This document shows positions 8,028-8,069 of a stretch of 64,000 bases of DNA, piece after piece. The position numbers and the translations under genes are program-made. The notes beneath the pieces were generated by a model. The model was not told the DNA's origin and made no database searches. It saw only the letters and a list, made by a program, of their open reading frames with translations. The stretch's first letter is position 1. Each line of letters begins with the position of its first letter. Origin of the DNA: Antedon mediterranea (taxonomy: Eukaryota; Animalia; Echinodermata); contig NC_092671.1 in assembly GCF_964355755.1 (NCBI RefSeq), positions 31,878,304 through 31,942,303 of the forward strand, read 5' to 3'.

Positions 8028-8069
<42 letters not shown>
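8028..8069 (+). other. Ectopic 42-bp copy of the 28S R2 target site in the spacer
   Basis: AGCGCGGGTAAACGGCGGGAGTAACTATGACTCTCTTAAGGT is identical to the consensus 28S positions -41..+1 around the R2 nick. Confidence 0.95.

Follow-up and report, generated by a model that had tools for sequence, protein, structure and literature searches.

The 64,000-nucleotide stretch of Antedon mediterranea DNA analysed here (the window) is a tandem rDNA array, in which 18S and 5.8S were each matched six times and 28S seven times. Normal units are 9.7-9.8 kb long and one unit measures 18.6 kb; the first spacer starts upstream of the window, whose end at 64000 truncates the last unit. In this study, we observed that every spacer start within the window carries a copy of the 28S target of the retrotransposon R2 (6/6, five of them whole and one an 8-bp stub). 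The whole copies, all on the plus strand, lie at 8028..8069, 26725..26766, 36385..36426, 46077..46118 and 55810..55851. They are exact matches to a 42-mer of 28S, as an earlier note on this DNA had claimed, and any match to this 42-mer was found in 0/100 shuffles. They correspond to 28S bases -41 to +1 relative to the R2 nick, at which they end, and have the same orientation as in 28S. The distance from the 28S end (Rfam) to the whole copies is 241-252 bp, in agreement with the earlier figure of about 250 bp. The exact 42-mer is also present in the 28S sites without insertion at 34987, 44670 and 54412, and the 28S site at 16384 runs into an R2 element. The 28S source site of unit 1 (6621..6662, plus strand) was recognised by sequence match and has one substitution, at -38, which is absent from every other 28S site and from every spacer copy.

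In a normal spacer, the copy is the only sequence derived from an rRNA gene (one hit when a single spacer was compared by blastn with an 18S-28S unit), and at E 1 blastn found no R2 sequence in a normal rDNA unit. The flanks of the copy match 28S or R2 no better than shuffles do; for the 15 bp on the right, 66/200 shuffles score equally well against R2. Thus, a derivation of the flanks from R2 or 28S was rejected, and the previous statement that they are not 28S is borne out. Repeat analysis identified a 9-bp tandem array (7896..7976, plus strand) that ends 51 bp upstream of the first copy. Such an array, with 8-9 repeats per spacer, precedes the copy in every spacer, and we speculate that it provides sites for a terminator or fork-barrier factor. 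On the other side, a run of 27 T (8085..8111, plus strand) lies 16 bp past the nick position of the copy and is possibly the end of the Pol I transcript. The flanks at 8013-8027 and 8070-8084 are partly inverted repeats (6 perfect pairs, reached in 142/20,000 shuffles, and ordinary by energy), and the right flank echoes the final few bases of the copy. Both features could be repair scars.

The intact copies had been described as invariant, and they indeed show 0 differences. The same number was found in the unique flanks: the copy, the 51 bp to its left and the 15 bp to its right are equally invariant in 5/5 spacers, and so are 125 bp taken from the end of 28S and the start of the spacer in 6/6. 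Among the four 28S genes without insertion, 3-7 differences per 3,684 bases were counted. Because the flanks are as invariant as the copy, its invariance is uninformative, and the proposed comparison of copy and flank conservation, run here within the array, has no power. Selection on the spacer copy left no sign within the array.

The resident R2 element and the tandem duplication

By sequence comparison, a full-length R2 of 4,532 bp (16424..20955, plus strand) is inserted at the canonical 28S site, with its 3' junction at +1. Its open frame (16719-20630) is intact, comprises 1,303 aa from stop to stop and encodes three zinc fingers, a Myb domain, a reverse transcriptase and a restriction-like endonuclease in one frame. 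The protein scores 653 bits with zebra-finch R2 and 289 bits with the 1,114-aa R2 entry 8gh6, which we take to be Bombyx R2. The three zinc fingers and the Myb domain align with the N-terminal region of R2Tg (E 4.5e-27), and the C-terminal domain aligns to R2Tg as well. In Pfam, RVT_1 was found at E 2.4e-36, and the zinc finger and Myb hits were weak and under cut-off. The closest database proteins are 33-41% identical. Judged by these alignments the resident R2 is an A-clade element, which makes avian and turtle R2, and not Bombyx R2, the proper guide to its behaviour.

The 5' UTR of the element contains one HDV-like ribozyme core, predicted from the pairing pattern (16528..16599, plus strand; P2, P3/L3, P1 3' strand, P4 and J4/2). 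Its P1 strand pairs equally well at -13 or +3, and the R2 ribozyme cleavage sites reported in one survey lie 9-36 bases upstream (PMC3774820). An origin of the spacer copy as a 5' leader of RNA from the resident element was considered and rejected, since its 41 bases agree with neither. It also resembles the 28S duplications at R2 5' junctions (Eickbush, Burke and Eickbush, 2013; PMC3774820), which are likewise short upstream 28S pieces ending at the insertion site and are made by R2 activity. However, those pieces abut the R2 5' end and have the length set by the ribozyme cleavage site (9-36), whereas the spacer copy is 41 bases long, adjoins no R2 and is fixed in the spacer, and this assignment was rejected too. 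The SIDEs described in the same paper, non-autonomous R2 parasites, are likewise short R2-related sequences in rDNA, but they are located in the target and possess an R2 ribozyme. In the spacer copy nothing is derived from R2, neither ribozyme nor 3' end, so that it does not qualify as a SIDE.

Starting inside the full-length element, 17917..22324 is identical to 22325..26732 (both on the plus strand), an exact 4,408-bp tandem duplication with 0 mismatches and no microhomology. The first half consists of the R2 3' part, the 28S 3' half, the spacer start and the stub. The second consists of a truncated R2 (22325-25363, 3,039 bp), the 28S 3' half and the spacer start, and continues into the whole spacer copy at 26725, which forms the right edge of the duplication. 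The broken copy that had been noted at 22317 is thus a genuine partial copy of 8 bp (-41 to -34; 22317..22324, plus strand, by sequence comparison), but it has not decayed: it is the 5' junction of the truncated R2. At this junction, 1,369 bp from the 28S nick, position -34 of a spacer copy meets a point within the R2 frame. A 5-bp 28S deletion and two substitutions that are absent from the other four units are common to both halves, and at the R2 sites inside the duplication that differ from sequencing run X2 both window copies carry the window allele (10/10). Given these common variants one local copying event suffices, and the second R2 is, on sequence grounds, most simply a copy of the neighbouring R2. 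The 5-bp deletions lie at 21420 and 25828, one in each of the 28S 3' halves that follow R2, and 7 bp are missing from 18S in the next unit (29922-31719); units with these deletions are probably defective.

The chance that a breakpoint placed at random lands within the 41 bp preceding the spacer nick is 0.4% per unit, or 0.8% for either end; it rises to 8% if breaks are limited to the first 500 bp after 28S. These values describe one event that was noticed after the fact.

Contigs of four public sequencing runs were compared with the R2 body. X1 and X2, which are from one sample, cover it and contain abundant R2; X5 and X7 gave 0 contigs on it, which is no proof of absence. The main R2 in X2 differs from the window R2 at 13 fixed sites. 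When these were examined for signs that the window R2 has aged, 9 of 12 coding differences were seen to change the residue, as in random change (23% silent expected). Homologs polarise few of these sites, and not all in one direction, and other units have similar private variants; therefore the order of events is not fixed. The compared R2 stretch ended 5 bp before the R2 3' end, so that 3' junctions are not represented among the loose ends of the contigs. Of 16 loose ends in X1 and X2, 12 were listed, and none of these is the 22324/22325 junction. As the main R2 there differs from that in the window and contigs drop rare variants, the junction is thereby neither confirmed nor excluded.

Truncated 5' R2 junctions were seen in the runs at 16802, 16788, 18498 and 20911. 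One of them, in X2, is joined to 28S with about 570 bp of 28S deleted upstream. The partner sequence at 18498 is not in the window, which suggests R2 copies outside rDNA, and a second loose end common to X1 and X2 is likewise not in the window. In further contigs of X1 and X2 the R2 interior abuts pentamer repeats of the spacer: at 20165, in both runs, these are inverted, and at 20661, in X2, the partner is the last spacer repeat. These joins are signs of further R2-linked rearrangement.

R2 biochemistry and the origin of the spacer copy

R2 is a model site-specific retrotransposon and the basis of tools for gene insertion into rDNA. The N-terminal domains of A-clade R2 are reported to bind the upstream half-site only, with footprints centred at -30 and -15, and the upstream limit of Bombyx R2 binding is given as about 40 bp (PMC11204384). 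The RUM is placed 22-34 bp upstream (PMC12222951). The spacer copy includes this published recognition region entire. The earlier argument that the copy covers the R2 recognition region stands in so far as the full upstream region is retained, but it was built on Bombyx R2, a D-clade model, and the resident R2 belongs to the A-clade. Compared with the canonical 28S target, the spacer copy is identical from -41 to +1 and has the same orientation, with an A-clade R2 resident in the array. It differs in lying outside the gene, once per unit, and in the bases that follow: the normal R2 RNA tail pairs with the spacer downstream bases over 1 base in register (3 with a nick shift of +1), in keeping with the earlier remark that the downstream bases are replaced.

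Downstream bases matter differently among R2 proteins. According to one study, Bombyx R2 primes without homology, whereas R2Tg without 3' homology nicks but does not prime, and the rare off-target insertions of R2Tg show a target match at -19 to -25 and a donor-tail match over 4-5 downstream bases (PMC12222951). In the same report, DNA bound by R2Tg was not exchanged for competitor, and the 3' end of natural R2 RNA is called unknown and expected to continue into 28S. Target-primed reverse transcription (TPRT) by R2Tg and R2Pm was supported by 4 tail bases but not by 0 or 3 (PMC11601368), and insertion by R2Ol was raised by longer 28S tails (PMC6795142). A stretch of 4-5 bases able to pair with the tail of R2 RNA was not found downstream at the spacer copy. 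With 1 paired base where 4-5 are needed, binding and nicking with little insertion would be predicted. By analogy with avian and turtle R2, binding would need upstream DNA only and priming would need 4-5 paired bases.

The explanation that we favour, with a probability of roughly 0.55, is that the spacer copy is a homogenised relic of an R2 cut that is still R2-reactive, i.e., bound and nicked but normally not inserted into. The 28S bases -41 to +1 would have been captured, likely once, in the repair of an R2 cut, and the captured piece would then have spread through the spacers by concerted evolution. The right end of the copy lies at the nick, which points to an R2 cut, and the left end is close to the upstream limit of binding in Bombyx. 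The capture step is unexplained in detail, because a length of 41 bases fits neither the resident ribozyme nor the published range. The resident A-clade R2 may then bind and nick the spacer copy, where normal R2 RNA would rarely insert; the single junction inside a copy speaks for this indirectly. A read-through transcript made of R2, the 28S 3' half and the spacer start would end with the spacer's own downstream bases; the end of this RNA could pair with the spacer primer and be reverse transcribed at the spacer copy. Truncation at the 5' side inside R2, together with the loss of 33 bp of upstream target, would give the observed duplication. Alternatively, an R2 nick at the spacer followed by DNA-templated repair would lead to the same product. 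No host benefit is required for this explanation.

Truncated 5' R2 junctions with upstream deletions are known (PMC2718515) and, together with the X2 example, favour R2 action. Against R2 action at the duplication junction, joins of wild-type avian R2 lie overwhelmingly within about 10 bp of the nick (PMC13486585), not 33. The pairing rule stems from vertebrate proteins that are about 40% or less identical to the resident R2, which also counts against the reading, as does the priming of Bombyx R2 without homology, and an example of priming from an RNA end 1.4 kb past the R2 3' UTR was not found in the literature searched. Among the routes to the duplication, we place read-through TPRT at the spacer first only tentatively, at clearly less than even odds, and the R2 nick with DNA-templated repair is an unlikely second.

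Alternative explanations and the question of selection

Potentially, the spacer copy is an inert relic, a 28S fragment that was homogenised passively and plays no part in R2 activity, and the duplication break fell there by chance, with breaks concentrated near the Pol I terminator or fork barrier, or is an assembly error. The equal invariance of the flanks agrees with this, as does the missing junction among the loose ends listed. Two known processes could also supply the break. A fork barrier would be expected after 28S in rDNA. Fork barriers were reported to cause non-homologous tandem duplications with one barrier-proximal breakpoint and the other several kb away (10.64898/2026.02.20.706968). 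With R2 whose second-strand nicking is weak, target duplications of ~1,000 bp were reported, which end close to the terminator within the transcribed zone and involve no second target (PMC13486585). The present case is alike in that a truncated insert meets rDNA some 1 kb beyond the 28S nick (1,369 bp here), near the transcription end. However, those duplications formed in engineered human cells and involved no second target, whereas here the junction lies inside a target copy and both halves hold the same R2. The corresponding route, a truncated 28S insertion with a 1,369-bp target duplication, whether or not the far break was R2's, would require that another full-length element, identical to the first, was inserted once the site had been regenerated; we rate it as unlikely, level with the nick and DNA-templated repair. 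A fork-barrier origin of the duplication is somewhat less probable, and an assembly error less probable still. The copy, moreover, retains every upstream base reported as read by A-clade R2, and the breakpoint still falls inside the 41 bp upstream of the spacer nick. We rate an inert relic as unlikely overall, albeit the most probable of the alternatives.

A second alternative is that the host keeps the copy, either to trap or waste R2 protein, for which it doubles the R2-binding sites, or to shift R2 breaks and copy-restoring unequal exchange out of 28S. This is close to the earlier note, which read the copy as a decoy or sink, or as a site where R2 nicks drive rearrangement. The link to R2 in that reading holds, namely the end at the nick, the intact A-clade R2 and the truncated R2 inside one copy, but nothing shows selection or protection of 28S. 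The presence of one copy per unit suits a decoy, and the predicted nicking without priming and the slow exchange seen with avian R2 would match what a decoy needs, so that a sink role is plausible by analogy with avian A-clade biochemistry. A ratio of 1:1 would at most halve productive hits, however, R2 persists in a 28S gene here and is abundant in X1 and X2, and the copy has no excess conservation within the array. In Drosophila, R2 breaks drive rDNA copy recovery (PMC10266012), which likewise involves the R2 endonuclease in rearranging rDNA; in that system R2 cuts 28S and a benefit to the host was put to the test, whereas the spacer site here is a proposal. A 2026 review adds that the Drosophila benefit may be group-specific (PMC13580325). 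R2 nicks that drive rearrangement outside the gene account better than a decoy for the single event observed, and we consider a selected decoy or relocated break site improbable, below the inert relic. To our knowledge, the value of R2 to its host has been tested in one species.

Least probable by far is a role at the level of RNA or termination (processing or termination signal), in which the copy would act as a structured element of the 3' external spacer ahead of the T run and its end at the nick would reflect origin only. In support, the small hairpin that this sequence forms in 28S also forms in the spacer copy, and the flanks can close the stem described above around it, 16 bp before the 27-T run. 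By energy, however, this flank stem is matched in 353/5,000 shuffles and 280/859 spacer-like pairs, and it is lost in longer folds; folding of the spacer start is no better than that of shuffles (z -0.46).

A more general proposal would be that animal rDNA repeatedly gains and keeps a spacer R2 site, as a decoy that is nicked by A-clade R2 and copies read-through RNA only, so that R2 breaks are moved out of 28S. We regard this as unlikely; recurrence would also follow from a repair accident that happens again and again. A search with R2 protein and alignment for the spacers of other animals gave six loci in metagenome contigs, 0 in viral sequences and one in a genome, none of which extends into a spacer; the seven loci (L001-L007) contain no spacer. 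For the congeneric organisms B-D, the word shares of read sets were 0.43 for B and 0.23 for C and D, values that do not tell whether the copy is present. A description of such a spacer element was not found in the openly accessible main-text literature searched, in line with the earlier note, and the word 'spacer' has zero occurrences in the main text of two R2 surveys (PMC5035012 and PMC13188248). An R2-target copy in an rDNA spacer is thus apparently undescribed.

Two of the loci deserve mention. L001:620-5139 is a related intact A-clade R2 with a 1,392-aa frame in AT-rich non-rDNA. It is flanked upstream by 28S -40 to -3 only and downstream by about 50 bp of 28S, so that in this single case either a short target piece is sufficient for insertion or R2 moves such pieces. 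A ribozyme that would account for its -40 edge gave 0 hits in a strict scan and 20 weak candidates in a relaxed one, with -27 and -40 tied. L007:1-2212 comes from a record whose title names a bacterial MAG, and is probably a eukaryotic contaminant. In it, 69 bp from another part of 28S stand before an R2-like 5' fragment, which possibly belongs to an element that uses a different target site.

In summary, the spacer copy is real and linked to R2, and a selected decoy is possible but unsupported. With the R2-cut relic as the preferred reading, the array would offer a natural target that keeps the upstream contacts but breaks primer pairing and thereby separates nicking from insertion. The duplication predicts a read-through template that extends to the spacer, and a decoy with read-through copying, if true, would be the first in vivo record of R2 RNA running to the end of the pre-rRNA. 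If the copy is selected, it would represent a DNA-encoded defence against a retrotransposon; if it is not, it still shows R2 reshaping rDNA spacers.
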